Shown: positions 1 through 31,462 of the stretch, in pieces
Layout: the number at the start of each line of letters is the position of its first letter
Position numbering within the stretch: the stretch's first letter is position 1
DNA from: a virus
Length of the DNA: 64,000 bases
IMG/VR virus record: IMGVR_UViG_3300035053_000267
Coordinates: 32,001 to 96,000 of that record
Direction: 5' to 3' (one strand)
The notes under the pieces: generated by a model
What the model saw: the letters and a program-made list of their open reading frames with translations, nothing else
Database searches by the model: none
Told to the model about the DNA's origin: nothing
Made by a program: the position numbers and the translations under genes

Positions 1-241
1 ATGCTGTGCCTTTCTCTGGCTGTTTCGATCCGGTCAACTCTGCGTTGGGCATATGAGGCTCTATCAGCGTAATCGTGCATCCCTCGCTGACCGCCCATTC
101 TTTTTTTGTCTCCATGTCCTGAAAGTACCACGAGTCGCCCGTTGCCGAGGGCGTGTGTAGTACCTTGGCCCGACTGCAAAGCGTGTACTGTGCATTGTTG
201 AAGTTAACACATACAATGTCGCCTTCCTGAATTGATCTCAT
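1..241 (-). CDS. Cassette hypothetical protein (3' end off window)
   Basis: GGAAAGG RBS then ATG at 241; MRSIQEGDIVCV...HMPNAELTG, open to window edge. Confidence 0.65.
   Translation of the reverse strand, partial: MRSIQEGDIVCVNFNNAQYTLCSRAKVLHTPSATGDSWYFQDMETKKEWAVSEGCTITLIEPHMPNAELTGSKQPEKGTA
32..50 (+). repeat. attC-like site, right half (left half outside window)
   Basis: GGTCAAC-TCTGC-GTTGGGC; resembles right arm of site 4560-4664. Confidence 0.7.
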
Positions 242-268
242 GTTGTCCTTTCCGGCCTTGCGGTACGT

Positions 269-326
269 GCCCAACAAGGCCAATCGACGGTACGGCTATT
301 CGCCGCCCGTCATTGCTGCGTTGGAC
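269..326 (+). repeat. attC-like site
   Basis: GCCCAAC...CAAT(C)GACGG/CCGTCATTG...GTTGGAC. Confidence 0.85.
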
Positions 327-493
327 GTATCGTGTTTATCGAGAATCATGTTCACAGACCCAAGGCAGGATGTGAACGCGGCGCGTCCATCCGGACCAGC
401 CAGTTGACTGTTTTTCGCAACCTCAAGTTCGCGCTTCAAGTCGCGCAAATCGTCCAACAAAGAAGTGGACGCTACCTCATTTCGCTCGCTCAT
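296..493 (-). CDS. Cassette hypothetical protein
   Basis: ATGA overlap with upstream ORF inside attC loop; ends in next attC. Confidence 0.65.
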   Translation of the reverse strand: MSERNEVASTSLLDDLRDLKRELEVAKNSQLAGPDGRAAFTSCLGSVNMILDKHDTSNAAMTGGE

Positions 494-535
494 TCTTCGC
501 TCCCTTCATTCTGATCGTCACTTCCGGCGTTGGGC
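452..535 (+). repeat. attC-like site
   Basis: GTCCAAC...AGTG(G)ACG/CGTCACT...GTTGGGC. Confidence 0.85.
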
Positions 536-708
536 GTATAATCAGGGTTGTGCCAGACCGAAAACCCGTTCCGCTGCAAAACATCTGCGGCCACGCTGGT
601 CTGACAGAAGCCGTCCGACCCGTAATCCGTGTCCAGTTCCTTCGCCTTGCGAATGATGTCATTCGCGCTGGCCGGTTCGTCATCAATCATGTACTTTTTT
701 TCGTTCAT
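490..708 (-). CDS. Cassette hypothetical protein
   Basis: AAGGAG RBS; 72 aa; ends PNAGSDDQNEGSEE in attC. Confidence 0.7.
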   Translation of the reverse strand: MNEKKYMIDDEPASANDIIRKAKELDTDYGSDGFCQTSVAADVLQRNGFSVWHNPDYTPNAGSDDQNEGSEE

Positions 709-734
709 CGCTTTTCTCCTTTATGTTACGGAAC

Positions 735-793
735 GCCCAACAAGGCGCTCCAGCTTACTCCGCTTCGCTCCGAAGTTGAGCTAGTTATTGAGT
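735..793 (+). repeat. attC-like site (R' ATT variant)
   Basis: GCCCAAC-AAGGC-GCTCCAGC...GCTTCGC...GTTGAGC-TAGTT-ATTGAGT. Confidence 0.8.
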
Positions 794-1260
794 TTCCACG
801 CAATAACACGAGTTTTGCTTTCGTCAAGTTCGCTGTTATTGGAGAAGCAAAACCGAGGATCGGTCGGTTCCTCTAGTGTCATCTTATCCTCGGTTATTCG
901 ATCTGTGCGATAATGCAGAACCTTGCAAATCAAAGGTGCGCTGAATGGTGGGTGACTATCAGCGTGCCAGACATTAAAAGAAACCCAATGATCGCTTGGA
1001 ACAGACGCGGAAACCGCGCCGCTAAAGTGTGCGTTCGGCATACGTTCCCTTGCGGCATCCCACGCCTTTCGGACCATCGGATCGGCGTGACTTCCAATCC
1101 AATGTCCACCTTTCGTCCCGACCTCAACGACGTACCAGTGCCACCAATCGTATTCCGACTTCCAGCGCAGAACGCCGCCAGCCTGTTTCGTTGTCTCAAT
1201 CTCATCCGCCCACGCCCACGCAGACAGATGCCGAACAAGACGTTTAAATTTATCTTTCAC
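781..1260 (-). CDS. Hypothetical protein spanning two cassettes (reads through attC 983-1039)
   Basis: Likely GTG start at 1260 after AAGGAG (ORF track start 1302); no stop across internal attC. Confidence 0.55.
   Translation of the reverse strand: MKDKFKRLVRHLSAWAWADEIETTKQAGGVLRWKSEYDWWHWYVVEVGTKGGHWIGSHADPMVRKAWDAARERMPNAHFSGAVSASVPSDHWVSFNVWHADSHPPFSAPLICKVLHYRTDRITEDKMTLEEPTDPRFCFSNNSELDESKTRVIAWKLNN
983..1039 (+). repeat. attC-like site (degenerate R'')
   Basis: ACCCAAT...CGCGGAAACCGCG...GTTCGGC. Confidence 0.65.
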
Positions 1261-1301
1261 TCGCTTCGCTCCTTTCAGAAAACTCAATTTAGGCGTTGGC
1301 A
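1230..1301 (+). repeat. attC-like site
   Basis: GCCGAAC...GCTTCGC loop...GTTGGCA. Confidence 0.75.
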
Positions 1302-1603
1302 TCTACCCCCCACACGTCCCAAATGAACGCATGGACGTTCTCTTTGTCCCAAGCCTGCCGCGTCGCCCATCCGTCCTCTGATTCAGCAGGGATTCCGTGG
1401 CTGTCGAGCCACGTCCGGTACTCTCTCAAAAAATCGTGGTACTGACGCGGGGCCTGTGTTACCGCATGGATATACTCGGCAAGCGCAAGGTGGTCATCAA
1501 GGCATGTTCGGCACCTGTCAATCCAACAGTCAAAGTGATGCCGAACCGGAAATACCAACAAATCAGTAGAGGCCGTATCCATTCGATCGCTTTGTTCATT
1601 CAT
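1289..1603 (-). CDS. Cassette hypothetical protein
   Basis: Likely start MNEQ at 1603 (GGAGG RBS, ATGA overlap); N-terminus encodes an attC left arm at 1553. Confidence 0.65.
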   Translation of the reverse strand: MNEQSDRMDTASTDLLVFPVRHHFDCWIDRCRTCLDDHLALAEYIHAVTQAPRQYHDFLREYRTWLDSHGIPAESEDGWATRQAWDKENVHAFIWDVWGVDANA

Positions 1604-1749
1604 GCTAAAACCTCCCTTACCTCTGCACCATCCCATGTCGCCGCATACAACCATACACCGCGAACACACCACCGGCTGCACCTGACCGGACGGACGCGCG
1701 GGTTTGTCGATGTTTGCTGTGTGTTAGTTTGTGTATGTTTCTTATCCAT
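1600..1749 (-). CDS. Small hypothetical protein (49 aa)
   Basis: Starts inside degenerate attC loop; TGA overlaps ATG at 1603. Confidence 0.35.
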   Translation of the reverse strand: MDKKHTQTNTQQTSTNPRVRPVRCSRWCVRGVWLYAATWDGAEVREVLA

Positions 1750-1792
1750 TATTTACTTCCATTTCGCTCGTCAGGTGAATCGGGAGGTAACA
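1663..1792 (+). repeat. Degenerate attC-like site
   Basis: CACCTGAC/GTCAGGTG stem retained, core AAC/GTT triplets mutated. Confidence 0.5.
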
Positions 1793-2001
1793 GACAACCA
1801 TTGCGGATGTATCCCGCACCCGTCTACGCCGGGCAGCGCGACCTCGTAGTGGCAATCGTCGCCCTTATACGCAGTATAATCATGGGTAATTTCGCCTATC
1901 ATGCCGTCAATGGATTCCGGCCAGTCATTTATCCAGTAGCCGCGATCCTTCATCCAAGTAGACGCCCCACTTTTCACCTTTACGAATGTTCCAACCTTCA
2001 T
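1771..2001 (-). CDS. Cassette hypothetical protein
   Basis: AGGAG RBS; 76 aa, MKVGTFVKVK start. Confidence 0.7.
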   Translation of the reverse strand: MKVGTFVKVKSGASTWMKDRGYWINDWPESIDGMIGEITHDYTAYKGDDCHYEVALPGVDGCGIHPQWLSVTSRFT

Positions 2002-2012
2002 ATTATCTCCTG

Positions 2013-2072
2013 CGCCAACAAGGCGTTCCAGATTATTTCACTTTGCTCAAAATCTGAGATTTGTCGTTAACT
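2013..2072 (+). repeat. attC-like site
   Basis: CGCCAAC-AAGGC-GTTCCAGA...TCTGAGA...GTTAACT. Confidence 0.75.
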
Positions 2073-2323
2073 GACGCCGCTGGTCCCATACTTTGCTGGG
2101 CTGTGCGTAACATCCGTTTCGCTGTTTCGTGACGGGATTCGTCGGAGTACTTCATTTCGACCTGATGCAGCAACTCGCAGTACAGGCCGTTCAGGCGTTT
2201 GTTTTCCAGTTCAAACCGCAAGACCTCTTTATGCAGGGCTTCGTTCTCTTGCTCAAGGTCCGTTATATATGCCGCGCTGGTTTCCGGCAACTCGCCCCGT
2301 TCTATATCGCTTGGTTCTATCAT
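2033..2323 (-). CDS. Cassette coiled-coil hypothetical protein
   Basis: Likely start MIEPSD at 2323 after AAGGAG. Confidence 0.65.
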   Translation of the reverse strand: MIEPSDIERGELPETSAAYITDLEQENEALHKEVLRFELENKRLNGLYCELLHQVEMKYSDESRHETAKRMLRTAQQSMGPAASVNDKSQILSKVK

Positions 2324-2332
2324 TATATACTC

Positions 2333-2391
2333 CTTCAACAAGGCGCAGCAAGTGACTCCGCTTAGCTACGCGCTTGAGCTAGTTGTTGGGC
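2333..2391 (+). repeat. attC-like site
   Basis: CTTCAAC-AAGGC...CTTGAGC-TAGTT-GTTGGGC. Confidence 0.8.
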
Positions 2392-2392
2392 A

Positions 2393-2569
2393 TCACAACC
2401 GTACCCCGTCCCAGTTGACGCTGCTGAACCACACAGGCATGTGGTCAATGCTCTCGCGGTCTTCCTTGCGCCTCACGGCGTCTTCGAGGTCTTCCTCGGT
2501 CAGAACGCCGTGCGTGATCCGCGTTGTGTCCTTGTCCGTCTTCCAATATGCGTCATAATTGATTTCCAT
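2393..2569 (-). CDS. Cassette hypothetical protein
   Basis: Likely start MEINY at 2569 after GGAAAGG; stops just before R'. Confidence 0.65.
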   Translation of the reverse strand: MEINYDAYWKTDKDTTRITHGVLTEEDLEDAVRRKEDRESIDHMPVWFSSVNWDGVRL

Positions 2570-2596
2570 CGTTCCCTTTCCGGCCTTGCGGGACAT

Positions 2597-2654
2597 GCCC
2601 AACAAGGCCAATAGAGCGCACGTCTAACGCCGCCGCTCATTGCTGTCGTTGGGC
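2597..2654 (+). repeat. attC-like site
   Basis: GCCCAAC...CAAT(A)GAGCG/CGCTCATTG...GTTGGGC. Confidence 0.85.
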
Positions 2655-2785
2655 GTATACTTCTGTGTCCAGTCCGTCACTTGATGCTCTGCTGGCATCT
2701 TGTCTCCGCACTTTGGACACTTAGCCATGTCCTTCCGTTTTGGTACATTCACTGTTCCGCACCACTGACAATGCATCTGTTCCAT
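2624..2785 (-). CDS. Cassette zinc-ribbon protein
   Basis: CQWCG...CPKCG; GGAGG RBS before ATG 2785. Confidence 0.65.
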   Translation of the reverse strand: MEQMHCQWCGTVNVPKRKDMAKCPKCGDKMPAEHQVTDWTQKYTPNDSNERRR

Positions 2786-2797
2786 GGTCGTCCTCCC

Positions 2798-2857
2798 GCC
2801 CAACAAAGGGCTGCAATCTACCTCTCTTCGCTCGGAGCTTGAGCCCTGGCGTTCGGT
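2798..2857 (+). repeat. attC-like site
   Basis: GCCCAAC-AAAGG-GCTGCAAT...CTTGAGC...GTTCGGT. Confidence 0.8.
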
Positions 2858-2928
2858 GCCAATTCATTGCACCGCCAGCACTCCATGTCGTAATCGTTGT
2901 TCAGTTGCCCACAGTGATCGCATGTTCA
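2818..2928 (-). pseudogene. RanBP2-type zinc-finger mini-cassette, TGA at the Trp position
   Basis: *TCDHCGQLNNDYDMECWRCNELAPN...; no own start upstream of the finger. Confidence 0.5.
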
Positions 2929-2935
2929 CGTCGGC

Positions 2936-3017
2936 ACCGAACAAAACGCTGGAAAACTATCTCCGCTTCGCTCCGAAGTCTCCGCTTCGCTCCGAAGTCT
3001 CAGCTTCTGCATTGGCT
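2936..3017 (+). repeat. attC-like site with 19-bp tandem duplication in loop
   Basis: ACCGAAC...TCTCCGCTTCGCTCCGAAG x2 (2960-2978, 2979-2997)...ATTGGCT. Confidence 0.8.
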
Positions 3018-3199
3018 GCAAGGTCGCGCAATACCTTAGCCGCCCACTCACAGCGTGCCCGAATGTTCTCCCGCTCGCTCATCATGGCCAAGCTGACGCG
3101 CTCGTGTCGCATGAACCATTCCTGGTGCTTGCGGAAGATGTCGTCAAAAACGTCGGCAGCAGCCAACAAGGCGCTGGAGTCTATCGTCTGTCCGCTCAT
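2957..3199 (-). CDS. Cassette hypothetical protein
   Basis: ATGA overlap in attC loop. Confidence 0.65.
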   Translation of the reverse strand: MSGQTIDSSALLAAADVFDDIFRKHQEWFMRHERVSLAMMSERENIRARCEWAAKVLRDLAANAEAETSERSGDFGAKRR

Positions 3200-3238
3200 T
3201 CTTCGCTCCCTTCTTGACCGTCAAGACGGTCGTTCGGT
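3161..3238 (+). repeat. attC-like site
   Basis: AGCCAAC-AAGGC-GCTGGAG...GTTCGGT; loop shares a 20-mer with site 452-535. Confidence 0.75.
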
Positions 3239-3399
3239 TTCCAAAGCCCAAACGTGAACAGCCGTCCCCAGTCTATGAGTAGTGACTTCCAAAGAGGAAC
3301 TCGCATGTCTGGCATAAATGATGGCGTATCAAGCCGATTGAAAAACCGAACAAGGCACTTCAGCGCACCAATGAAGCCGCGCCAACCTTTCTGTTTCAT
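3196..3399 (-). CDS. Cassette hypothetical protein
   Basis: Likely start MKQKG at 3399 (GGAG RBS, ATGA overlap). Confidence 0.6.
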   Translation of the reverse strand: MKQKGWRGFIGALKCLVRFFNRLDTPSFMPDMRVPLWKSLLIDWGRLFTFGLWKPNDRLDGQEGSEE

Positions 3400-3450
3400 T
3401 CTCCACGTCCTTCCTGCGGCTTCATTGGCCGCTGAGTTTCGGCGTTCGGC
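3345..3450 (+). repeat. attC-like site
   Basis: ACCGAAC...CCAATGAAGCCGC/GCGGCTTCATTGG long stem...GTTCGGC. Confidence 0.85.
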
Positions 3451-3674
3451 TCGTATCCACAAGCGCGGCATGGGTATGGCCGTGAGCCAGAAATTTCTGC
3501 GCCGCATGATACGCAGTGATACGAGGCTGTCTGATTACGGGCATGGTGAGCCGCTAAAGCGGCGCCGGTCAGCCGCGTGCCCGCAAGGTCGATGAACGGC
3601 TCAGCCGAACCACTGGATGCAGGCTGACCGCCTGCGGTTTCTGTGGTTGCGGTGTTCGTAGATTCATCTTTCAT
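3396..3674 (-). CDS. Cassette zinc-ribbon protein
   Basis: CVSCG...CRACG. Confidence 0.65.
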   Translation of the reverse strand: MKDESTNTATTETAGGQPASSGSAEPFIDLAGTRLTGAALAAHHARNQTASYHCVSCGAEISGSRPYPCRACGYEPNAETQRPMKPQEGRGE

Positions 3675-3733
3675 CGTCTGTGTCTCCTTCGGTTTCTGAT
3701 TGTTCCCGGCGGCAGCTGATCCTGCCGTTCGAC
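3604..3733 (+). repeat. attC-like site
   Basis: GCCGAAC...CCGCC/GGCGG...GTTCGAC. Confidence 0.75.
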
Positions 3734-3930
3734 ACCATACACCGTATGCTGGAATAGAATCCGGTCAAGTGTCGCCTCCACTTCATCGGCCTGTGCTCAA
3801 ATGTGTGAGGCTTACACTTTCCGTCCGGCTTCATCAGCCCATCCCATCGGCATTTCCATGTTTCAGGGTGCTGATGCGGGCAGGGTGTCGAACCAGGCGC
3901 TGGAGAACTATCGTCAATCCGCTCGTTCAT
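3664..3930 (-). CDS. Cassette hypothetical protein
   Basis: Start in attC loop after AAGGAG; overlaps next start. Confidence 0.55.
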   Translation of the reverse strand: MNERIDDSSPAPGSTPCPHQHPETWKCRWDGLMKPDGKCKPHTFEHRPMKWRRHLTGFYSSIRCMVSNGRISCRREQSETEGDTDDER

Positions 3931-3973
3931 TCTTCACTCACTCCTTTCCGAAGTCTCAGCTTCGACGTTGGCC
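3887..3973 (+). repeat. attC-like site
   Basis: GTCGAAC...GCTG(G)AGA/TCTCAGC...GTTGGCC. Confidence 0.85.
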
Positions 3974-4221
3974 TCAAAGACGTGGAACACGAGCCCGCCG
4001 CCGTGAAGCTGAAACGTGCCGATGTAGTCACCGGGATCAGTAGCGCAGCAATGGCCGGTGCCGTACACGCGGAACGTCCGACGTTCCTGCGGGGCGTTCG
4101 AGTCCACCAGCGCCCACAGTTGCGGTTCGCCGTGCTGTTCTTGCACTGTCAGGATCTTCGCGCCTTGCGGCATGTCCAACGTGCATTCGGTGGTCAGTGT
4201 CCATTTCCAGATTGTTCTCAT
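3934..4221 (-). CDS. Conserved small phage protein (IWK...LWALVD...GTGH...YIGT...VFHVFE family)
   Basis: Recognisable motif pattern of a widespread uncharacterised phage family; GAAAGG RBS. Confidence 0.75.
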   Translation of the reverse strand: MRTIWKWTLTTECTLDMPQGAKILTVQEQHGEPQLWALVDSNAPQERRTFRVYGTGHCCATDPGDYIGTFQLHGGGLVFHVFEANVEAETSERSE

Positions 4222-4249
4222 GCTGTCCTTTCTGCTCGGTCAACCGTGA

Positions 4250-4307
4250 GGCCAACCAGGCGTTGGAGAATACGGCTTACAGCCGATTCTCAACTTTATC
4301 GTTCGGT
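4250..4307 (+). repeat. attC-like site
   Basis: GGCCAAC...GTTG(G)AGAAT/ATTCTCAAC...GTTCGGT. Confidence 0.88.
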
Positions 4308-4894
4308 TGAACTTCCGCAGGCCAGCGCCACTTGCCACGATCAAGGCATTCCACAATGGCGAGCGCCACGGCGGCTACCTGCACGGCTTCCTCTCGGATG
4401 TGCTCGGCGGCTGGCCCTCCAAACCGATCATGGAGTGCGCACTGGCACAGCTCGCCGTATTCCTCGCCGAGCACTGTTAGGTAGGCAAACGGGTCATGGT
4501 TTTGCTCGCCCCACTTCTCATCCTGCCGCCGCCGTTCTTCGAGCACGTCAACCAGTGCAACCGAACAAGGCGCTTCACTCGTACCGACAAAGGCCGGTTT
4601 TGCGTTGTCTGTCATGTCATTTCCTTTCTCCGGCTTTTGCTGGCCGGTCAGCTTGTCGTTGGGCTCCTCTGGTCCAAGGCCACAGCAGCCCTCCTCGGGG
4701 TACTCATGGAACCACGCCACGTGATCGTAGAAACGGCGCGTCTTCCCGTCGTCGTCGAGAACACCCTGCTCTGGTCCGTCAGCAATCTGGATTTCAGACT
4801 CTTCTTCTTCAGGGTCGTCCTTCGGGCCAAGAGGCGCGACGATCAACCCACAGAACTCAGCCAGCGTCCGAATCTCCTTGATCGTCAGTATCAT
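4277..4894 (-). CDS. Two-cassette fusion; C-terminal part (own start at 4615) is a MazG-like NTP pyrophosphohydrolase
   Basis: EERRRQDEKWG...EEYGEL...EEAVQVAAVA MazG-like pattern; frame open across attC 4560-4664. Confidence 0.7.
   Translation of the reverse strand: MILTIKEIRTLAEFCGLIVAPLGPKDDPEEEESEIQIADGPEQGVLDDDGKTRRFYDHVAWFHEYPEEGCCGLGPEEPNDKLTGQQKPEKGNDMTDNAKPAFVGTSEAPCSVALVDVLEERRRQDEKWGEQNHDPFAYLTVLGEEYGELCQCALHDRFGGPAAEHIREEAVQVAAVALAIVECLDRGKWRWPAEVQPNDKVENRL
4560..4664 (+). repeat. attC-like site
   Basis: ACCGAAC-AAGGC...GGTCAGC-TTGTC-GTTGGGC. Confidence 0.75.
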
Positions 4895-4920
4895 TGCTTT
4901 CCTTTCTGCTGGCCGGGTAA

Positions 4921-4978
4921 GCCCAACCAGCATTTCGAGCGTACCGGCTACCGCCGTCCGCTCAAATCGTTGTTGGCA
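4921..4978 (+). repeat. attC-like site
   Basis: GCCCAAC...ATTT(C)GAGCG/CGCTCAAAT...GTTGGCA. Confidence 0.88.
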
Positions 4979-4981
4979 TCT

Positions 4982-5155
4982 TCAATGATGGTCGATCTCG
5001 ATCCAATTGGCGTCCATGTCACAATCCGCAAGCGGGTTTCCTGCGCTAATGTCGTGACGGTAGCCAGTCTTGTACTCGATCCATTCTTCAATTTCGCGTT
5101 CTGTTGCCCCCGTCTCGGGCACTTCAATGACGAGCGACACATTGTATTGCTTCAT
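4982..5155 (-). CDS. Hypothetical protein (57 aa, not in ORF track)
   Basis: AAGGA RBS, MKQYNVSLVIEVPE...IEIDHH. Confidence 0.55.
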   Translation of the reverse strand: MKQYNVSLVIEVPETGATEREIEEWIEYKTGYRHDISAGNPLADCDMDANWIEIDHH

Positions 5156-5396
5156 CTCGTTCCTTATTATTTATAAGATTTATCAGCTCCTCTGGTAAAT
5201 CATCTGTCCAGAAGTCGTTTTCTTCACACTCAAAACCATATTTAAGACCCCAAAATTCTCTTATTGCTCCATGGCCCAGAACATCGTTGTCACGCCACCC
5301 TGAGAGTTTTTCTCTGCCATGGGCAGAGAATACCTCTTTATCAGTTAAGTAAAATAGTTTGTTATCTTTTTCAATCCAGCTTATAAAATTGCACAT
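5124..5396 (-). CDS. Short paralog of the N-terminal domain of 5463-6347
   Basis: Near-identical first ~50 aa (MCNFISWIEKDNKLFYLTD...). Confidence 0.6.
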   Translation of the reverse strand: MCNFISWIEKDNKLFYLTDKEVFSAHGREKLSGWRDNDVLGHGAIREFWGLKYGFECEENDFWTDDLPEELINLINNKERDEAIQCVARH

Positions 5397-5403
5397 GTTT
5401 ACT

Positions 5404-5468
5404 CCTTAATTGTTTGAAATGCAGCCGACAGGATGCAGCTCCCTGTCGGCTGTACGCTGTTATTATGT
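5404..5468 (+). repeat. Degenerate attC-like hairpin at array edge
   Basis: CAGCCGACAGG/CCTGTCGGCTG stem with AAT/ATT cores. Confidence 0.4.
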
Positions 5469-6347
5469 TTCAAGCTTAGAAAGCAACTTTTGTGCTTCTT
5501 TTTTATACTTGCTGGGAGCGCGGCACACAATATATTGCAAATCCTCCTCAATGGGTTTCTGCTTAAGTAATTGTTGCCACGCTTCTTCTCTCCACTTATC
5601 GGGAGCGCGGCACACGGCATATCGCAGATCCTCCCTAGTGTGTTTCTGCTTGAGTAATTGTTGCCATGCTTCTTCTCTCCACTTGTCGGGAGCATAACAC
5701 ACAATATATTGCAAATCTGCATTAGTAGGCTTTTGCTCAAGTAATCGTTGCCATGCTTTTTCTTTCCACTTACAGAGAACGTGGCACACAGCATATCGCA
5801 GATCTTCATTAGTGGGGCTCTGCTCAAGTAGCTGTTTCCATGCCTTTTCTGCCCGCTTACTGGGAGCGAAGCGCATGATATATCGCAGATCCATATTAGT
5901 GGGCCTCTGTTTGAGTAATTGCTGCCACGCTTCTTCTGCCCGTTTGTCAGTAGAACGACATATAATCAGTCGCAGATCGTTATTAGTGGGTCCCTGCGCA
6001 AGCAGCTGCTGCCATGCTTTTTCTGCCCACTTACTGGGAGCGAAACGCACAATACGTCGCAGATCATCATTTTGAGAATGGCCGTTTCTCCACATTTTAC
6101 CAAAGTTTGCATCAAAATCTTTTATGAGATTCTTTAACTCCTTTGGCAACTCCTCTGCCCAAAAGTCACGTCTCTCATACTCAGTGCCACCTTTAACGCC
6201 CCAGAATTCTCTTATTGCTCCGTGGCCCAGAACATCGTTGTCACGGCATCCTGAGAGTTTTTCTCTGCCATGGGCAGAGAATACCTCTTTATCCGTCAGA
6301 TAAAATAATTTATTGTCCTTTTCAATCCAACTAATAAAATTACACAT
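5463..6347 (-). CDS. Helical repeat protein (7 x 29-aa repeats)
   Basis: Repeats NxDLRYIVxxAPxKWxEEAWQQLLKQxPT, 87-bp period. Confidence 0.8.
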   Translation of the reverse strand: MCNFISWIEKDNKLFYLTDKEVFSAHGREKLSGCRDNDVLGHGAIREFWGVKGGTEYERRDFWAEELPKELKNLIKDFDANFGKMWRNGHSQNDDLRRIVRFAPSKWAEKAWQQLLAQGPTNNDLRLIICRSTDKRAEEAWQQLLKQRPTNMDLRYIMRFAPSKRAEKAWKQLLEQSPTNEDLRYAVCHVLCKWKEKAWQRLLEQKPTNADLQYIVCYAPDKWREEAWQQLLKQKHTREDLRYAVCRAPDKWREEAWQQLLKQKPIEEDLQYIVCRAPSKYKKEAQKLLSKLET

Positions 6348-6363
6348 TTATTCCTCCTTAGTT

Positions 6364-6645
6364 TTATCTTTCAAAAATCAGAGAATCAGCACTTACAGTG
6401 TGCCACCCACACATATCAGCGGCCATTCTCCTTACTTCTCGATTAATTCTATCTTGTGCGTCGCTATAAGTTAGATAGTCAACCCGAGGCAGTGAAAATA
6501 ACTTTTTAGGAAAAGGCACCCACTTTAACTTACGCCACCATAAGTACCCACACCATTCACGATGCTCAATGCGAAATATTATTCCATTAGTAATGACGCG
6601 AAACTCTTTAGCGAGCTCTTTAGCTATCTCATCTATTTCTGGCAT
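6364..6645 (-). CDS. Hypothetical protein
   Basis: AGGAG RBS, operon packing. Confidence 0.6.
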   Translation of the reverse strand: MPEIDEIAKELAKEFRVITNGIIFRIEHREWCGYLWWRKLKWVPFPKKLFSLPRVDYLTYSDAQDRINREVRRMAADMCGWHTVSADSLIFER

Positions 6646-7097
6646 ATGCTGTTTGCTCCTTTATTTTTCTGATTCCGAAGATGCCAACGCCACCAGGTCT
6701 TAGCTCGTCTGTCTGAGCGACCATCGTTCTCCCATACAGCAGGGATCAGCACATCCACCTGCCCGGCCTCCACCGACAGCAAACCGACCTGAGCCTGCTT
6801 AAACTTATCCAATGTTCTTAAACGCATCTTATCACAGCGCTCCCGGGGCATTGCAGCAAAACTGGCATTGACAAATGCACGATTACCTTGCGCCTGCATT
6901 ATTACCTGCCTGACATTGGACATCTTCAATTCAACAGCTACTGCACAATCCAGTGGCGGCACCGACCTCCCTGTGCGAGGATGGAACCGAAAGCCAATAA
7001 CATCACAGTAGCCGCTCAACAGGCATTCATGGGCATCCTCCAGACCATCGGCTGCCAGCCAGTCAACAATTGGCTTCCTCATATCGTTCTCAACCAT
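6633..7097 (-). CDS. PD-(D/E)xK nuclease-fold protein
   Basis: E...CDVIG...AVELK motif. Confidence 0.55.
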   Translation of the reverse strand: MVENDMRKPIVDWLAADGLEDAHECLLSGYCDVIGFRFHPRTGRSVPPLDCAVAVELKMSNVRQVIMQAQGNRAFVNASFAAMPRERCDKMRLRTLDKFKQAQVGLLSVEAGQVDVLIPAVWENDGRSDRRAKTWWRWHLRNQKNKGANSICQK

Positions 7098-7137
7098 TAT
7101 CCGCTCCCTTTTAGAGGATTATTATATTTTCTACAAT

Positions 7138-7395
7138 CTACCAGCATTTAAATTGAGGCAGAAACCCGCTGCCCCCGCACGCGCAGCAGGTTTCCATGCT
7201 ATCAGCCTCTTTGCCCGAACCATGACATTCAGGGCATGCCTCTACATCTCCTGAACCTAAACATACTGGACAGACCTCTGTACAGGCAATATCTCCAGCC
7301 AGGTCGGCTGCTTTATCATTAGGATAAACCTGTATATTAGTTTGTGAGTACAGAACATCTACAGTTCCATCCCCTTCGCATTTAGGGCAGATCAC
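7138..7395 (-). CDS. DnaJ-type Cys-rich zinc-finger protein
   Basis: Four CxxCxGxG motifs. Confidence 0.7.
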   Translation of the reverse strand: MICPKCEGDGTVDVLYSQTNIQVYPNDKAADLAGDIACTEVCPVCLGSGDVEACPECHGSGKEADSMETCCACGGSGFLPQFKCW

Positions 7396-7572
7396 AGCTT
7401 CTCAACCCCTTTACGAATCAGATCAATAAGATTAAGAGCCTTATTCTTACAGCCACACACATTAGACGTTCCTACATCTTCGCCTCTATTTTCTTTAAAA
7501 GGACAATTAACCGATGTACATCCCAATGTAATAACTACAAGCTTTGCAGCGTATCTAACCAGTCTCAATCCA

Positions 7573-8541
7573 CTAGCCACCGAAAACCTCCTTAAAAGCT
7601 CTAAGCTGATTTGGAGCAAAGTTCTCATTAAACAAAGCCCATTCCCAGAATGAAAATATGACATTGATGTTCTTGTTCACAGCCTTTTTAAGAAAATCAA
7701 CGTATCTGTAGTACGCGGCCTCTCCTCCCAGCATTCCATCCACTTTTTCCTCATTCATAATAGGAACAGTATATCCACTGTAGTTCAGATTGTTGTGAAT
7801 ATGCATATAGTCAGCTTTAAAAGGAAGCTTATCATACAGAGAAACTTTAAAACCCTTATCACTGAAATACTTATAAAACTCCTTGCACCACCTTACAGAG
7901 GGGCCTCCATCTACAGTATATTCATTAGCACCGATAATAATCCAGTCTTCCATTCCCGCACACCTCTCCACTATGCTGTCAAAATAATACAGCAATGAGG
8001 AATTCATAGATGTCACATCCAAAGGTGACAAATGTGTGGTATTAAAGTCCAGGACATCGAGAAGCAAAGTCAATTTAAGATCTTTACACTCACCTATAAA
8101 ATACTCGAAATAATTCCACCATTTACGAGGCTGATTCCAAGGCTGAAATTCAGATCGCTTAAACAGGCGTCCAGCCTTATCAGTAAAATCAGAGCATGTC
8201 GTCAGTCTAAGCTGAGTAGCATTGATAGTATTGGTGTTTTCTATAGTATCAAACACCTCGGCCAGTCTGCCAGCTATAAGGGAACAGGACCCTCCAGTGT
8301 ACCATGTCAGGATAAACGGGTCTCCAATGCCGTTAAAACACCCTATACTAGGTGGCGTAGGCTCTTCTATAGAATAGTCACTGATTATTCTATAAAGATC
8401 CATTCCAGCTGCCTGCATCTCAAAAAACCTGGACAAAAGACGATTATCATCAATTCCGCTAATATGTCGGTACAGATGAGAGCCATATCTGTACATTTCA
8501 TTTAAAATACTTAACATTTCATTTTTAGTGTGCAAATCCAT
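7573..8541 (-). CDS. Hypothetical protein, possibly glycoside hydrolase-like TIM barrel
   Basis: GGAGG RBS before MDLHTK; IIIGANE and DYMHIH motifs reminiscent of clan GH-A. Confidence 0.45.
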   Translation of the reverse strand: MDLHTKNEMLSILNEMYRYGSHLYRHISGIDDNRLLSRFFEMQAAGMDLYRIISDYSIEEPTPPSIGCFNGIGDPFILTWYTGGSCSLIAGRLAEVFDTIENTNTINATQLRLTTCSDFTDKAGRLFKRSEFQPWNQPRKWWNYFEYFIGECKDLKLTLLLDVLDFNTTHLSPLDVTSMNSSLLYYFDSIVERCAGMEDWIIIGANEYTVDGGPSVRWCKEFYKYFSDKGFKVSLYDKLPFKADYMHIHNNLNYSGYTVPIMNEEKVDGMLGGEAAYYRYVDFLKKAVNKNINVIFSFWEWALFNENFAPNQLRAFKEVFGG

Positions 8542-8594
8542 ATCGTTCCTCCAATAAATTACATCATTTTTAATGTATACCTCTTCCAATTATT

Positions 8595-9173
8595 TCAATT
8601 AAGCAGTGTCTTAAAATCTTCATTTTTTCCGATAAAATCACTATTAGCTCTATAAACGTTTTCCCAGTTAGTATCGTCGACTATAATAATGCATTTATCC
8701 GACAGGTAAGGAAGCATACATGTAAGCCCATTAAGCTGACTTTCATATGAATGGTTCCCGTCATAAAAATAAACATCTACAGAGTCTTTAAGATTACGTA
8801 TCACAGAGCGAAAATCTTTTTCAAAATTGGCGTCTATGATTTCGCACTTCCACTCCTGATTAAATGCTTTTATATTTTTAAACGCAATATCCTTGTTTGT
8901 TGTATTTCTATTAAACTGAGAAAAATTATCAACACCCAGGCCGTAAACGTCATTAAATAGAACAGCACTTAATAAGCTGCAGCCACAATATACTCCTACT
9001 TCAAAATATGTACCTCCTTTAGCATACACTGCCACTAATTCATTTATAAGAAAGCGTATATTCTCCGTACTCATGCCTCTGACACCATTGTCTCTAAGAC
9101 ACTTCATTCTCCTGTTTAAAGGATGTGGGTCCTTCTCAACGTCTTTCCAGTTATCTAAAATATCATCAAACAT
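8595..9173 (-). CDS. Class I SAM-dependent methyltransferase (Methyltransf_24-like)
   Basis: YFEVGVYCGCS, YFYDGNHSY, IIVDD motifs. Confidence 0.8.
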   Translation of the reverse strand: MFDDILDNWKDVEKDPHPLNRRMKCLRDNGVRGMSTENIRFLINELVAVYAKGGTYFEVGVYCGCSLLSAVLFNDVYGLGVDNFSQFNRNTTNKDIAFKNIKAFNQEWKCEIIDANFEKDFRSVIRNLKDSVDVYFYDGNHSYESQLNGLTCMLPYLSDKCIIIVDDTNWENVYRANSDFIGKNEDFKTLLN

Positions 9174-9456
9174 TTTACCTCCAATCAGATGTAAAAAAAG
9201 CAAACGCAGTTCATTATATTATTCCATTTTATAAAGATGTAATGAAGCAATATATAAAAAAAAAGCACACCACCACTGCCATCAGCACCAACCATTCGGC
9301 CGTCTTCGCGAATCGCGAATCGCATATATATATATTGTTCCATATTGTAATGCAGAAGAGTCTCGCTAAGGAGGTCGGACAGGGGTTGCCCTATGAAAAA
9401 ACGAGAACTCTTCTGCTGCAAATAGTACACTGTTCAGGACCTATTGCTCCTTAAAC

Positions 9457-9705
9457 TTATTCTTGAATATCACATACCGGCCTTATCTTTTGCCAGCAGA
9501 CCGCACCTGATCCGGGCAATGTGACTTCTTCATACCCGTTTTCAGCCATTGTCTTTCTGTGATAACACACACCCGCAGTGACGATAGCTGCCACCAATAC
9601 AATCACCATCGCCACAAGAGTCCAGAATGTGATCCAGTACCTTTCGTCAGACGATAACGCACACATCGAGTCCATTATATTTCCTTTCTTCATTGGAACC
9701 GGCAA
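9457..9705 (-). CDS. Small membrane protein
   Basis: One strong hydrophobic segment. Confidence 0.55.
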   Translation of the reverse strand: MPVPMKKGNIMDSMCALSSDERYWITFWTLVAMVIVLVAAIVTAGVCYHRKTMAENGYEEVTLPGSGAVCWQKIRPVCDIQE

Positions 9706-9856
9706 TCAGTTTACCGTCTCTCTATGTTCTTTTCGGCAATATTCACAATAAAAGGAATATCCACTGTCCTGAGCCAGGAGATTTTAACACCTAACCTGGC
9801 TCTTGCCAGACGTACCTCCTCTCCTTATTACAGCTGTTTAAGCCTATTCCGCCAGT

Positions 9857-10231
9857 CTACCTGGCCGGCCTTTGTTTTTTACGCAGTACCGTGCCTTTAC
9901 CCTTACATACCGGACACGACTCATTACTGTTAACAACAACATGAGCACCTAAATTCTTAAACTCATTTTCGATGCTCCTTGTATTACCGGCTCCTCCACA
10001 CACAGGACAAGTAAAAAACACAGGCTTCTCATCCACACACGTGTCTTTAACAACGTAATAGGACTTTGAATTTCCACACACTGTAAACAAGAGTGAACTG
10101 GAAATTGTAGTCTTCATATCAGACACAATAGCGTCGGGGACCCCCAGAGTATTAGTCCCAACAATCTGAGCACCATAATTAACTAATGAAGAGAAAACCT
10201 GTTTGTTTCTAGCAACCACCTTTATCATCAC
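9857..10231 (-). CDS. Protein with DnaJ-type zinc finger
   Basis: CPVCGGAG...CPVCKGKG. Confidence 0.65.
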   Translation of the reverse strand: MMIKVVARNKQVFSSLVNYGAQIVGTNTLGVPDAIVSDMKTTISSSLLFTVCGNSKSYYVVKDTCVDEKPVFFTCPVCGGAGNTRSIENEFKNLGAHVVVNSNESCPVCKGKGTVLRKKQRPAR

Positions 10232-10268
10232 ACCACCTGACTAGTTTGAACACAATAGTTTACACGAT

Positions 10269-10300
10269 AAAAAAGAGCGCAGCTTTTAAACTGCGCTCTT
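10269..10300 (-). terminator. Intrinsic terminator
   Basis: AAGAGCGCAG/CTGCGCTCTT stem then T-run on minus, just after the 10307 stop. Confidence 0.7.
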
Positions 10301-10306
10301 ATTGAT

Positions 10307-11026
10307 TTACTTCTTCTTGAATTTTCTCTTTATTTTCTGCCAATATTCACTTATTGTGTTCTTGACAGTCTCCTCCTCCTCGTCCAGTTCTTCCGGTGTT
10401 TCGGTTAGATCGGCCCCACAGCCTGGACACCATTTCCACGCCCCACTGCAAAGATACCCACACTCGGGACACGGTATAGTTGCATAGAGCGGCTCATACG
10501 GGAGCTGAATAGTCCTTTCCATGTCGCCGACTTTAAGAACCAGAACTCCTTTCGACGTAAAGTCAATTTCTCCGGAATTCTTGGTTTCGCAGACTAGCGT
10601 CATGCCTGCGTTCTTACCCGTTATGAGAGACTTGGTGATAAGGGCCATAACCGACTCAGATTCCACCAGCTCAACACGCTTACCGTTATACGTCAAGCTG
10701 ATCTCTGGGATGTACTCAACTTCTCTGAGTACATCCTGGCAGCTCACAACCACCAGAACTTTTCCCTGCAATTCATCATCGGAAATGAGCTCCTCTACAT
10801 CTCCTGGATCCACTTCCGGATCATTGCTTATAAAGCGCAGGGCTTCTTCGGGAAGAAGCAACGTAGTCGTCGCTTTAAATTCCCCTGCTTTGACATTCAG
10901 AGCTTTCTCAATAAAGCCCCCAAACGTCTGGTCGGGTTGCCCCGCATATGCCAGGGCCATTACGACCATCATAACCAGTGTTGTAATTATTGCCAGTGCT
11001 CTCATGTATTCCTCCTTATTTTGCAC
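10307..11026 (-). CDS. Secreted/membrane-anchored protein with C-terminal zinc ribbon
   Basis: Signal-like MRALAIITTLV...; CPECG...CPGCG. Confidence 0.7.
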   Translation of the reverse strand: MQNKEEYMRALAIITTLVMMVVMALAYAGQPDQTFGGFIEKALNVKAGEFKATTTLLLPEEALRFISNDPEVDPGDVEELISDDELQGKVLVVVSCQDVLREVEYIPEISLTYNGKRVELVESESVMALITKSLITGKNAGMTLVCETKNSGEIDFTSKGVLVLKVGDMERTIQLPYEPLYATIPCPECGYLCSGAWKWCPGCGADLTETPEELDEEEETVKNTISEYWQKIKRKFKKK

Positions 11027-11128
11027 TAACTGAATAAAAAAGCTACGACACTTGCCGTAGCTTTTTCACTATAATTCCTCAGCACCTGCCAAAGAATATA
11101 AAGCATATTTATATAATGCTTTACATCA

Positions 11129-11158
11129 TATTATGCCACTCGTTATGCCCAATTTAAG
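11129..11158 (-). promoter_or_regulatory. Putative promoter CTTAAA-N17-CATAAT
   Basis: Motif recurs at 17922-17952 and 45229-45259. Confidence 0.5.
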
Positions 11159-11268
11159 CTCAACACCAAAAGCGGTTCAGCCTCGCATATTAAACCGCTC
11201 GGACAATACTGGATAAGCTCTTACAACAACAAGCTAGAAAGCACACGGCTTAAGCCGTGGGTCACTAA

Positions 11269-13116
11269 CTAGTACTCACCTTTTGTGTATAGTTTTTTTC
11301 CAAAATCCTTACCCTGAACCAGAGAAGGAATATATGATTCGCTGTGAATCTTAGACTCTCTGCCTCTATGGGCGGCTTCAAGAAGATTATCTTTTAAATA
11401 AAAACCACCAAGTCTGGCCTGCCAGTCTGGAGTTTTAGCAAGATTTTCCAAAGCTCTAAGCATAAAAGAATTGAACGGCGGTGGATCGTCATGGGCTTCC
11501 ACATATTTAACATTATGTTTTTTAAGTTTATCCAATACAGGTTTAGTAATGCGAGTACCTATAGAGTAGTGCAATACAGGCTTTTCAAGATACTTATTAG
11601 AGGCCGTACTTACAGGCAAGTGTCTGGTACCATACCTGGGCTTATATTTTCTCTCTACCGACGAGTATTCCAATATGTCGCCAGGTAAACCCGGAACTCC
11701 ATCAATATCATTTACATGAACATGATTAACCAGACCCCTGGCTACCAGCTCTACATTGCGCCTGTTTATGTTAATGCCCTGATCTGTATACGCTTTTTTA
11801 AATAAACGTATAAATTCCCTTCTGCCTTCACCAAGCCCCTTGTACTTAACAAGATCCGACGGATTAGGAATGCCGGTTGACAGAACATCTCCGGAGTAAA
11901 CCCTGTCACCTTCTTTTACCACAGGATCAAAACCCTGATTAATATGGTGCTTTTGACCGCTTACATAAATATACTTGCCCCCCTGAGGAGAATCTTCAAT
12001 TTTAGTCACTGTACCGTCTTTTGATGAGACAGCAGCAGCTCCCCTGAAAGATTTAGGAACCTGTATAAGCTGATTAACAAGCTCAAATCCACTTGGCTCG
12101 TCCCCTTTTTTCTCCTTATCTATGCGTCCACCCTGGTGCTTAACATTAAGAGCCATCTGAGTCGTGGGCTCAGCAACTGCCTGTGCAGCTGACATACCTA
12201 CGTTCTCACCGATATCAGGAAATCCTCCTTTTTCCCGTATTCCGGCACACCTGGAACAGACTCCTGCGGCTGCATTGCATGTCACAGGGGATCTTACGAC
12301 TATCTCATCATCCTCTATACTGTCCAACACTTCAGGAGTTATAACAGTACCGGCAGGATAGTCGCCATATTGTTTAGCAAGAAGAGCTCCTAAATTGTCT
12401 TTGTCCTCTCTATCGACCACCATACCCCTGTCGGTCTTACAGTCGTTCTCAGTGACAACCAGTCTATGTGCAGCCTGCTTTAACTGTTTTCCATAAAATC
12501 CTGTATCAGCTGTTGCTATTTTTGTAGATAGAAGTCCTTTTCTGGCTCCATACGCCCCGGCCCAGTACTCAGCAGGATCCAGACCCTCGCTATAACTCCT
12601 CAACATAGGTATAGGCACTACCCTGTCTTTATTGTCAGCCACTAAAAGATTTCCAACAATAATGCTCCGCATATCAGAAAGCTTTCCCCTTGCTTTAGAC
12701 ATGACCTGCTCGGCAAAAGAGTTACCACTGGCTGCTGACTCGTCAAACATGGTTTTCTGAATGGCATCCTGGTTCTTAAGAATGAGACCGACAATGGCTT
12801 TATTTTTTTGATCGTCAGTCAGCCTGGGAGACTCTGACACTTTTTTAATATCTCTTTTGAGCCTGTCTATCAGCATCCTGGTTTTAGGGGGCTTGGCCAG
12901 ATCGTCTATAGACAGACTGACACCTGTCTCGTACGCTACCTTTGCACCTAGACGATGAAGGTCCTTGGTGGCCTTACGGTACGCGTCCTGACTCATTTCT
13001 CTTTCCATACGGTCGAGAACATCTTTTAAATCATCTGAAGTAAGAGAAGTATAGTCTCTGTACTCAGAGGGTAAGGCCTGATTGAATATAACTTTTCCAA
13101 CAGTAGTTTTAATCAT
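11269..13116 (-). CDS. rpoC: Multisubunit RNA polymerase beta-prime C-terminal half
   Basis: GARKGL...TADTGF bridge helix, RSPVTC...CxxC, GENVG..AAQAVAEPTTQMAL..KHQGG trigger loop; likely start MIKTTVG. Confidence 0.9.
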   Translation of the reverse strand: MIKTTVGKVIFNQALPSEYRDYTSLTSDDLKDVLDRMEREMSQDAYRKATKDLHRLGAKVAYETGVSLSIDDLAKPPKTRMLIDRLKRDIKKVSESPRLTDDQKNKAIVGLILKNQDAIQKTMFDESAASGNSFAEQVMSKARGKLSDMRSIIVGNLLVADNKDRVVPIPMLRSYSEGLDPAEYWAGAYGARKGLLSTKIATADTGFYGKQLKQAAHRLVVTENDCKTDRGMVVDREDKDNLGALLAKQYGDYPAGTVITPEVLDSIEDDEIVVRSPVTCNAAAGVCSRCAGIREKGGFPDIGENVGMSAAQAVAEPTTQMALNVKHQGGRIDKEKKGDEPSGFELVNQLIQVPKSFRGAAAVSSKDGTVTKIEDSPQGGKYIYVSGQKHHINQGFDPVVKEGDRVYSGDVLSTGIPNPSDLVKYKGLGEGRREFIRLFKKAYTDQGININRRNVELVARGLVNHVHVNDIDGVPGLPGDILEYSSVERKYKPRYGTRHLPVSTASNKYLEKPVLHYSIGTRITKPVLDKLKKHNVKYVEAHDDPPPFNSFMLRALENLAKTPDWQARLGGFYLKDNLLEAAHRGRESKIHSESYIPSLVQGKDFGKKLYTKGEY

Positions 13117-13807: not shown

Positions 13808-13808
13808 T

Positions 13809-14084: not shown

Positions 14085-14098
14085 TGTAATCTGCTCCT

Positions 14099-22328: not shown

Positions 22329-22444
22329 TCTTTATAAACTGCAAGGACGCCTCTCTTCGCCCGTTTAGTGCCGACCTTCCTCTTAACAAAAAACAGCAAA
22401 CCGCAGCTGAATAAAATTAAGAGCGTACAATATATTATTCCTAT

Positions 22445-23298: not shown

Positions 23299-23310
23299 CT
23301 ATTAGTTGAC

Positions 23311-25639: not shown

Positions 25640-25647
25640 GATGCCCT

Positions 25648-31454: not shown

Positions 31455-31462
31455 ACTGCCCC

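Follow-up and report, generated by a model that had tools for sequence, protein, structure and literature searches.

We analyzed a 64,000-nucleotide stretch of DNA (hereafter, the window) comprising bases 32001 to 96000 of IMG/VR record IMGVR_UViG_3300035053_000267, a linear contig of 111,747 bases with a CheckV completeness of about 57%. The window begins inside an array of attC-type sites, the recombination sites of integron cassettes, which alternate with small open reading frames (ORFs); its right-hand ~5 kb lies within the window and 6.5 kb lies upstream. Positions in the upstream part are given in the coordinates of sequence L001 (record bases 22001 to 40000; window coordinate = L001 coordinate - 10000), where the whole array spans 3493 to 14978 (window -6507 to 4978), that is, 11,486 bases with about 34 attC-type sites. 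The sites are genuine integron-type attC sites, and the whole is a cluster of attC sites lacking an integrase (CALIN) inside the genome of a large phage, in which nearly all cassette genes appear to lie antisense to the sites.

The array has a GC content of 53.3%, versus 42.6% in both 10-kb flanks, and in the GC profile of the whole record a single island stands out (50 to 58%, from about 25.5 to 37.1 kb of the record) from a remainder of about 42%. At the left end of the array, attC-like sites fade into low-GC, low-scoring copies. At the right end, the last site is followed by a 57-amino-acid ORF of about 50% GC with no attC of its own, and GC falls at about position 5160. On either side of the island, long ORFs are nearly all on the minus strand, and the window encodes, among other products with phage family matches, split RNA polymerase beta-like proteins, an ATP-dependent ligase, a ribonucleotide reductase, and a DNA polymerase. 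The array sits in a large phage replicon, flanked on either side by phage DNA. A preliminary description of this stretch, made from the letters alone, had called the context jumbo-phage-like; the phage is indeed large, while a jumbo size (genome of >200 kb) is an extrapolation from the ~57% CheckV estimate on the 111,747-base linear contig with its split RNA polymerase beta-like proteins.

About 20 attC-type palindromes had been claimed in positions 1 to 5470, which is a fair count. We find 17 well-formed sites there, 15 of them matched by a covariance model (E ≤ 0.022) and two curated by hand (the site at the window start and that at 3604 to 3733), and two more that are degenerate (979 to 1039 and 1553 to 1600). 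Curation, by a search upstream of each R'' for the best partner of its reverse complement, gave 28 complete sites and several partial ones. Scanning the whole genome for AAC...GTT hairpins gave too much noise, whether by folding energy or with an arm alignment anchored at the triplet, and the R' chosen by energy was often the wrong partner; we therefore relied on the cognate R-box search. The sites in the window are listed below, with the bit score of the covariance model and, where it is informative, the folding z-score of the bottom strand relative to shuffles.

1 to 4978, plus strand: part of the attC array in the window, from GC content, the covariance model, and curation
1 to 50 (L001 9948 to 10050), plus strand: 3' part of an attC straddling the window start; R' GTT at 44 to 46; 18.9 bits for the 5' part
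269 to 326, plus strand: attC of 58 nucleotides, 48.8 bits; the bottom strand gives the classic R box/spacer/L box hairpin (z -3.1)
452 to 535, plus strand: attC of 84 nucleotides, 45.5 bits; loop with the ribosome site and ATG of ORF 296-493 (minus)
735 to 793, plus strand: attC of 59 nucleotides, 63.2 bits; R' starts with ATT; same family as L001 7119-7178 and three sites of another contig, L065 (see below)
979 to 1039, plus strand: degenerate site; R'' ends in AAT and is cognate to the preceding R' (ATTGAGTTT versus ATTGGGTTT); R' GTT at 1033; missed by the covariance model
1230 to 1301, plus strand: attC of 72 nucleotides, 42% GC, 22.4 bits
1553 to 1600, plus strand: weak or degenerate site; R'' cognate to the R' at 1295; 5 bits (E = 3.2)
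2013 to 2072, plus strand: attC of 60 nucleotides, 40% GC, 57.7 bits
2333 to 2391, plus strand: attC of 59 nucleotides, 59.2 bits; same family as L001 5713-5771 and 8532-8588
2597 to 2654, plus strand: attC of 58 nucleotides, 50.8 bits; bottom-strand hairpin (z -2.7)
2798 to 2857, plus strand: attC of 60 nucleotides, 66.8 bits; same family as L001 6554-6613 and 9263-9322
2936 to 3017, plus strand: attC of 82 nucleotides, 22.8 bits; R' starts with ATT; a 19-nucleotide unit, CTCCGCTTCGCTCCGAAGT, is tandemly duplicated in the loop (2958 to 2995)
3161 to 3238, plus strand: attC of 78 nucleotides, 20.8 bits; loop with the ribosome site and ATG of ORF 2957-3199 (minus)
3345 to 3450, plus strand: attC of 106 nucleotides, 33.4 bits; 13-bp inner stem (z -3.7); loop with the start of ORF 3196-3399 (minus)
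3604 to 3733, plus strand: attC of 130 nucleotides, curated, without a covariance-model match; three extra bases on the AAC arm; R boxes cognate on both sides; loop with the start of ORF 3396-3674 (minus)
3887 to 3973, plus strand: attC of 87 nucleotides, 28.3 bits; loop with the start of ORF 3664-3930 (minus)
4250 to 4307, plus strand: attC of 58 nucleotides, 57.7 bits; two extra bases on the AAC arm (z -3.9)
4560 to 4664, plus strand: attC of 105 nucleotides, 19.8 bits; loop with the start of ORF 4277-4615 (minus)
4921 to 4978, plus strand: last attC of the array, 58 nucleotides, 40 bits (z -3.5)

Two units deserve separate mention. The 78-nucleotide interval 2858 to 2935, before the attC at 2936 to 3017, contains no ORF and is a gene-less cassette. 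Upstream of the window, at L001 9263 to 9335 (plus strand; window -737 to -665), a normal attC body has GGTGAGC where GTT... would be expected, and another R'-like end (ATTGGGCAT), this one cognate to the R'' that comes next, follows 12 nucleotides later. This fused, damaged site looks like a deletion joining two sites.

Read on the plus strand, the sites share one layout: an R'' ending in AAC, an unpaired spacer of 4 to 6 nucleotides (e.g., AAGGC), an L'' with one or more extra bases, a variable loop, L', a spacer, and an R' starting with GTT. The AAC is present in 29 of the 34 sites and the GTT in 27, and both columns are invariant in an alignment of 15 short sites. Site lengths range from 46 to 130 nucleotides and mostly fall between 57 and 62 or between 72 and 106. 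The R''/L''/loop/L'/R' anatomy had already been proposed from the letters, and it stands. The strict consensus RYYYAAC/GTTRRRY proposed with it does not: position 4 of RYYYAAC deviates in about one-third of the sites (GAAC/GTTC), as it likewise does in a bacterial integron discussed below (L134), and the strict words show no enrichment by count because many sites have GAAC/GTTC. No R'' of the array contains TAAC, so the reported lack of the TAA stop was correct. The loop motif CTTCGC is found on the plus strand in 15 of the 34 sites and on the minus strand in none.

The strongest evidence for integron-type recombination lies in the R boxes. When the seven bases outside the triplet are compared, the R' of one site and the R'' of the next agree on average in 5.46 positions, versus 2.89 for the two ends of the same site and 2.88 for all remaining pairs; the observed sum over neighbors was not reached in any of 20,000 permutations. 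Every neighboring R'/R'' pair listed in the preliminary description was reproduced, and further pairs came from the part upstream of the window. IntI cuts at G|TT, inside the conserved AAC/GTT triplet, and the pattern is the scar expected of crossovers there if each unit had once been a circle closed within that triplet.

The internal boxes of the sites have been kept paired as well. In the alignment of 15 short sites, 70.8% of the cells in 13 named pairs were paired, versus 50.8% after shuffling, and the covariation score was 0.519, versus 0.146 for shuffled alignments (0 of 500 shuffles reached it) and 0.054 to 0.174 for slid partners; in both measures, only the L helices count. The two L helices were paired in 76% and 89% of cells, with changes on both sides in 8 of 10 pairs, and RNAalifold predicted the inner stem with compensatory changes in five of six pairs. 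A covariance model was built from the plus strand of these 15 sites and run on the whole contig. At E ≤ 1 it found 29 distinct sites, all on the plus strand and all within L001 5713 to 14978 (9.3 kb), and none in the remaining ~100 kb on either strand; with filters off, two further weak sites appeared leftward (L001 3493-3550 and 4336-4381). The same site read either way scored 40 to 63 bits on the plus strand and 3 to 10 bits on the minus strand. When 12 bottom strands were folded as single-stranded DNA, seven were more stable than shuffles (z -2.1 to -3.9), showing the R box, internal loop, L box, and one-sided bulges. The locus thus has multiple attC sites on one strand, close together, with no intI nearby.

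Could these be ordinary intergenic hairpin repeats of a phage, such as terminators, REP-like elements, or the promoter/stem-loop cassettes of T4-type phages, that merely resemble attC? Every site is intergenic and in one orientation, and several carry expression signals, as such repeats might. However, the cognate R boxes are specific to each cassette, the spacer is unpaired and the extra bases are one-sided, the model matches attC sites beside true IntI genes (see below), and the sites are missing from the other 100 kb of the phage. The lack of T-runs 3' of the hairpins, together with the cognate R boxes and the matches beside IntI, speaks against plain hairpin repeats, and we give this explanation almost no credence.

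We next consider which strand is the top strand. By our own derivation, R-box complementarity cannot decide this, as either model pairs the identical two ends. Three independent lines do point to the plus strand, as had been proposed. First, in attC sites the extra-helical bases lie on the arm with 5'-AAC-3' in the top strand and on the opposite arm in the bottom strand, and in many sites the bottom-strand loop is a purine GAA (Nivina et al. 2016, PMC5027507). In the array, 55 extra bases are on the AAC arm of the plus strand versus 12 on the GTT arm, with 23 of 28 sites concordant, and since CTTCGC occurs on the plus strand only, the bottom strand bears the purine GAA loop described in PMC5027507. 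Second, we scanned one genome per prokaryote species with the plus-strand pattern (R'' end, spacer, L'' start ... CTTCGCTC). In about 34 bacterial attC-array loci with the pattern, an ORF on the pattern strand ends just ahead of R'', its stop codon often visible. Among them, a Verrucomicrobia chromosome (L134/L051) has an IntI gene (418 bits) and more than 25 sites, every one of them on the strand running away from intI, with the same R''-AAGGC-GCTGCAGCC motif and stop codons just before R''. Third, the covariance model also matches sites beside two other true IntI genes (TIGR02249, 419 and 502 bits), upstream of intI and on the opposite strand. In IMG/VR, 140 contigs encode full-length IntI relatives, with 40 to 55% identity to bacterial IntI for 80 of the 140 (L141 to L220); in these 80 viral contigs, 40 of 43 matches of the model were on the strand opposite intI, and the arrays inspected in IntI-bearing viral contigs (e.g., L154) lie upstream of intI. 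Judged from these sequence features, the plus strand is best read as the top strand by the convention common to all integrons, and the coding (minus) strand of the phage would be the recombinogenic bottom strand.

The genes lie on that other strand. Comparing the longest ORFs was unreliable at this GC content; instead, an interval between sites was scored by whether an ATG or GTG with a Shine-Dalgarno core opened a frame over at least 60% of it. In this phage, 20 intervals had such a frame on the bottom strand only, one on the top strand only, none on both, and seven on neither; by the same scoring, ten bacterial arrays gave 0 bottom only, 8 top only, 0 both, and 17 neither. At least 20 of 21 scorable cassettes are therefore inverted with respect to the canonical cassette, whose ORF is on the attC top strand and ends at or before R''. 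Within the window this agrees with the earlier claim that every gene is antisense; upstream, the claim fails for one cassette of textbook orientation, L001 6654 to 7163 (plus strand; window -3346 to -2837), a 169-amino-acid ORF with a ribosome site that ends inside the attC at L001 7119-7178 and has no Pfam or PHROG match. The cassette genes are also co-oriented with phage transcription, as had been noted, since the flanking genes are on the same strand. The cassette ORFs in the window are as follows.

2 to 241, minus strand: 80 amino acids; ATG 34 nucleotides past the R'' of site 269-326
296 to 493, minus strand: 65 amino acids; start inside attC 452-535
490 to 708, minus strand: 72 amino acids; leader (ribosome site and R'' flank) conserved with cassettes of L065
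781 to 1260, minus strand: one or more ORFs, 159 amino acids; GTG in attC 1230-1301; frame crosses the degenerate site 979-1039
1289 to 1603, minus strand: cassette ORF, 104 amino acids
1771 to 2001, minus strand: cassette ORF, 76 amino acids
2033 to 2323, minus strand: cassette ORF, 96 amino acids
2393 to 2569, minus strand: cassette ORF, 58 amino acids
2624 to 2785, minus strand: 53 amino acids; weak zinc-ribbon matches under the Pfam cutoffs
2957 to 3199, minus strand: 80 amino acids; start inside attC 3161-3238
3196 to 3399, minus strand: 67 amino acids; start inside attC 3345-3450
3396 to 3674, minus strand: 92 amino acids; weak zinc ribbon; start inside attC 3604-3733
3664 to 3930, minus strand: 88 amino acids; start inside attC 3887-3973
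3934 to 4221, minus strand: 95 amino acids; DUF7352 (Pfam, 5.9e-27) and phrog_3848 (1e-20); last seven residues and stop in the neighboring attC
4277 to 4615, minus strand: 112 amino acids; phrog_24212 (5.6e-23) and phrog_2831
4665 to 4894, minus strand: ORF without its own stop, running in frame across attC 4560-4664 into the next ORF
4982 to 5155, minus strand: 57 amino acids; last higher-GC ORF, no attC to its right

Family matches are all on the minus strand: ORFs 3934-4221 and 4277-4615, the weak zinc ribbons, and an RNA ligase (phrog_14301, 1.2e-67). The RNA ligase is encoded at L001 4677 to 5348 (window -5323 to -4652), in the left, poorly structured part of the island with weak attC-like sites and lone R'-like GTT words. 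Zinc-ribbon cargo had been predicted, and the matches are there, although only as Pfam hits below the cutoffs. The prediction of a MazG-like protein for ORF 4277-4615 finds no support in Pfam or PDB sequence searches, neither of which gave a match; the ORF does match two phage families of unknown function (phrog_24212 and phrog_2831). An open frame of 218 amino acids (4277 to 4933, minus strand) crosses attC 4560-4664 and merges two cassette ORFs. ORF 4982-5155 may be a cassette that has lost its site, or else a gene native to the phage. Directly to the right of the array, two neighboring ORFs on the minus strand, 5124-5396 and 5463-6347, have a near-identical N-terminal region of about 60 amino acids; the second also contains at least five tandem repeats of about 40 amino acids with the motif ...PTNxDLRY...EKAWQQLL..., and Pfam gives only faint matches (PAZ_4, TPR) for the pair.

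The way in which genes and sites interlock depends on site length. Short sites (57 to 62 nucleotides) are associated with a ribosome site and an ATG 16 to 35 nucleotides past R''. In long sites (72 to 130 nucleotides), the ribosome site and start codon are in the loop, 24 to 64 nucleotides inside (11 ATG and 2 GTG cases), and the L''/R'' arm encodes the first residues of the ORF. Stop codons are mostly located in the neighboring attC. Since so many ORFs start within the hairpin, gene and site stay joined after a crossover at R' but would be separated by one at the other end, which fits the assigned polarity.

The same arrangement suggests an opposite model, in which the minus strand is the functional top strand. 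On the minus strand, gene followed by hairpin is the textbook order, with most stops in the following hairpin, and R-box complementarity alone fits either model. Against this, the covariance model, in the same orientation, matches attC sites of bacterial and viral integrons, where they run away from intI; in the ~34 bacterial loci, the gene-sense strand carries the identical R''-spacer-L'' motif; the extra bases and the GAA loop obey the published rule; and a crossover at the other end would cut the 11 to 13 start codons inside hairpin loops from their ORFs. We regard a reversed top strand as very unlikely. With the top strand of the sites on plus and nearly all genes opposite it, each cassette mirrors the textbook one, with attC 5' of the gene.

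The mirrored layout recurs elsewhere: in L065 (8 sites), L080 (11 sites), L250 (9 sites), L223 (2 sites), and L135/L137 (1 site). L065 and L080 are binned as bacterial genomes yet have phage-type replication genes (helicase phrog_62 and exonuclease phrog_69 in L065; exonuclease phrog_298 in L080), and they have the site family and conserved leader (ribosome site, spacer, and R'') of our array, and bottom-strand genes as well. L250 is a 20.9-kb IMG/VR contig of 61% GC with at least nine attC sites (4304 to 11244, plus strand). When a frame with a ribosome site had to cover at least 60% of an interval, six of its eight intervals had one on the bottom strand only and two had none on either strand; one of its sites has the same loop (ribosome site and ATG) as window sites 452-535 and 3161-3238. 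No tyrosine recombinase was found on the L135/L137, L223, and L250 fragments. Two viral contigs do encode their own IntI. In L151, site polarity is away from intI, and the last attC is separated from intI by a PAPS-reductase-like gene on the same strand as intI. In L155, baseplate and tail genes and a DGR Avd gene are followed by cassettes, IntI, and a serine integrase, all on one strand. A search of viral contigs with two exact attC family patterns gave no match, and no cassette protein was common to this array and 119 loci from genomes.

These comparisons also bear on whether the assembler fused part of a bacterial chromosomal integron to phage sequence. The sharp GC island (53.3% versus 42.6%) and the metagenomic origin of the contig could suggest such a chimera. 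However, two false joins would be needed, with phage DNA on both sides; the cassette genes are on the strand of all flanking phage genes; four of them match Pfam or PHROG families, three being phage (PHROG) families; some cassettes and sites have phage-like GC; and the mirrored layout is found in viral contigs and not in the bacterial arrays examined. A chimera is highly improbable.

Clusters of attC sites in phages are not new. Among 10,705 phage genomes, Qi, Rajabal, Ghaly, Tetu, and Gillings found three complete integrons, one In0, and 17 CALINs, and of six phage attC sites that they tested, five were inserted into attI1 by IntI1, which recombined bottom strands better than top strands (Qi et al. 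2023, Front Microbiol, PMC9892861). Our array resembles those CALINs in having attC sites and cassettes without intI in phages, virulent ones included. They were defined by two or more sites and came from isolated phages of about 40 to 130 kb, whereas here about 34 sites in 11.5 kb lie in a fragment of a much larger uncultured phage. PMC9892861 makes no mention of genes antisense to attC. In the published virulent phage TJE1, the covariance model finds one site, at 244 to 293 (plus strand), after orf1 and on the same strand, which is the ordinary orientation. A full-text literature search turned up no paper on phage attC clusters besides PMC9892861 and no description of the inverted layout. 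Phage attC clusters are thus already published; the size of this one is exceptional, and its mirrored cassette design is undescribed in the literature we found.

Among bacterial systems, the closest likeness is to a sedentary chromosomal integron such as that of the Verrucomicrobia chromosome, which also has a long one-way array, small and mostly unknown genes, near-identical attC families, the R''-AAGGC-GCT(G/C)CAGC motif, cognate R boxes, and gene-less cassettes. There, however, the genes end before R'' on the top strand and intI is divergent at one end, whereas the phage array has bottom-strand genes on a phage replicon, with no intI or attI seen. The Vibrio cholerae superintegron is the textbook sedentary chromosomal integron, and inverted cassettes in Vibrio chromosomal integrons are mostly toxin-antitoxin cassettes with their own promoters, a scattered minority. 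They share with ours a gene antisense to attC polarity, but in the phage array inversion is the rule (at least 20 of 21 scorable cassettes), and the translation signals come from the attC. The integrons of L151 and L155 have attC polarity away from intI and bottom-strand cassette genes as here; they have their own IntI and short arrays, versus a far longer array without IntI in our phage. T4-type phages, as Arbiol and colleagues reportedly described in 2010, have promoter/stem-loop mobile cassettes in hyperplastic regions, said to be moved by homologous recombination between the repeats. These, too, are small accessory genes of a large phage between repeated stem-loops, thought to be shuffled as modules; unlike them, the anatomy and R-box scars of our array point to site-specific recombination of folded single strands.

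Several results weigh against reading the locus as a mirrored integron-type array of the phage. No integron integrase or any other tyrosine recombinase (PF00589, TIGR02249) was found on the 111.7-kb, ~57%-complete contig, and no attI or cassette promoter was recognized on it, so that the contig does not hold a complete integron with intI beside the array, attI, and promoter. Searches with the flank proteins against viral contigs found no close relatives for a comparison of cassette order; the RNA polymerase subunit has two relatives, only in metagenomes and 29% identical, and neither locus has attC sites. The remaining five of the 12 folded bottom strands are indistinguishable from shuffles (z near 0), and some sites are decayed (triplets ATT or AAT, the fused site at L001 9263-9335, and left-end sites of 7 to 12 bits). 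The covariance model was trained on this array itself and not on the curated attC model of IntegronFinder, and the strand of the genes was assigned from ribosome sites plus four family matches; most cassette ORFs have no known relatives. Even so, we hold with good confidence that this is a genuine integron-type cassette array, a CALIN of about 34 sites in 11.5 kb, mirrored, in a large-phage genome.

No HUH Y1 transposase was found on the contig. The only recombinase seen belongs to an IS607-type pair far from the array, at window 36726 to 38337 (minus strand), in which a small serine recombinase ORF (37768-38337; Resolvase, 6.3e-18) is followed by a TnpB-like ORF (36726-37775; Cas12f1-like TNB domain, 6.6e-21).

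Some of these points would suit an inactive relic, that is, an array captured once, wholly or for the most part, from another phage or element by illegitimate or homologous recombination and kept as an accessory block, with no integron recombination in the phage life cycle. The missing IntI, the decayed sites and the fused one, the cassette ORF without a stop through an attC, the rightmost higher-GC ORF without an attC, and the little amelioration of GC (53% versus 42%) can all be read in this way. On the other hand, the R and L boxes still pair in more than 20 sites, which have also kept their extra bases and cognate R boxes; GC varies between 0.46 and 0.64 among cassettes and between 0.35 and 0.62 among sites, which makes their sources look mixed; three site families recur inside the array; and 43% of the genome is unseen. 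A relic is unlikely, though clearly less so than a reversed top strand or a chimera. The preliminary description had gone further and proposed that the phage shuffles accessory genes by integron-type recombination, its own or the host's. The integron-type cassettes with their R-box scars agree with this, but no integrase is encoded on the 111.7-kb contig. For the past of this array, integron-type recombination has good support; that it still goes on in this phage we infer.

Since every flanking gene is on the same strand, we propose that the mirrored array would be expressed by read-through of phage transcription. Cassettes may be gained, lost, and reordered by an IntI acting in trans, supplied by the host, by a co-resident phage or element, or by the unsequenced ~43% of the genome. 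They might be drawn from a pool of mirror-image cassettes circulating among phages, as suggested by the same site families and layout in other viral contigs, two of which have their own IntI on the cassette-gene strand. A broader proposal, which we put forward tentatively and at somewhat less than even odds, is that phages keep and trade their own mirror-image class of cassettes. In this class, attC would serve as a 5' leader that supplies the ribosome site and, in many cases, the start codon too. The recombinogenic bottom strand would be the coding, non-template strand, exposed by transcription and, if the genes run with replication, by lagging-strand synthesis, and intI would be on the cassette strand rather than divergent. 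The 34-site array in a large virulent-type phage would then be a high-capacity store served by an integrase in trans.

Integrons have been viewed as bacterial devices, in which strand selection by IntI faces each promoterless gene away from attI, to be read from the cassette promoter. The opposite gene polarity, with translation signals in the site, would imply a second design of the same machinery, suited to one-way phage transcription. Surveys that expect a gene upstream of each attC would mis-assign phage cassettes. Phages would have a site-specific route for swapping accessory genes, for which anti-defense cargo is plausible, although no anti-defense genes were identified in this array. 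Phage cassettes entering a bacterial integron would arrive silent, which would limit and shape the exchange between the two pools.

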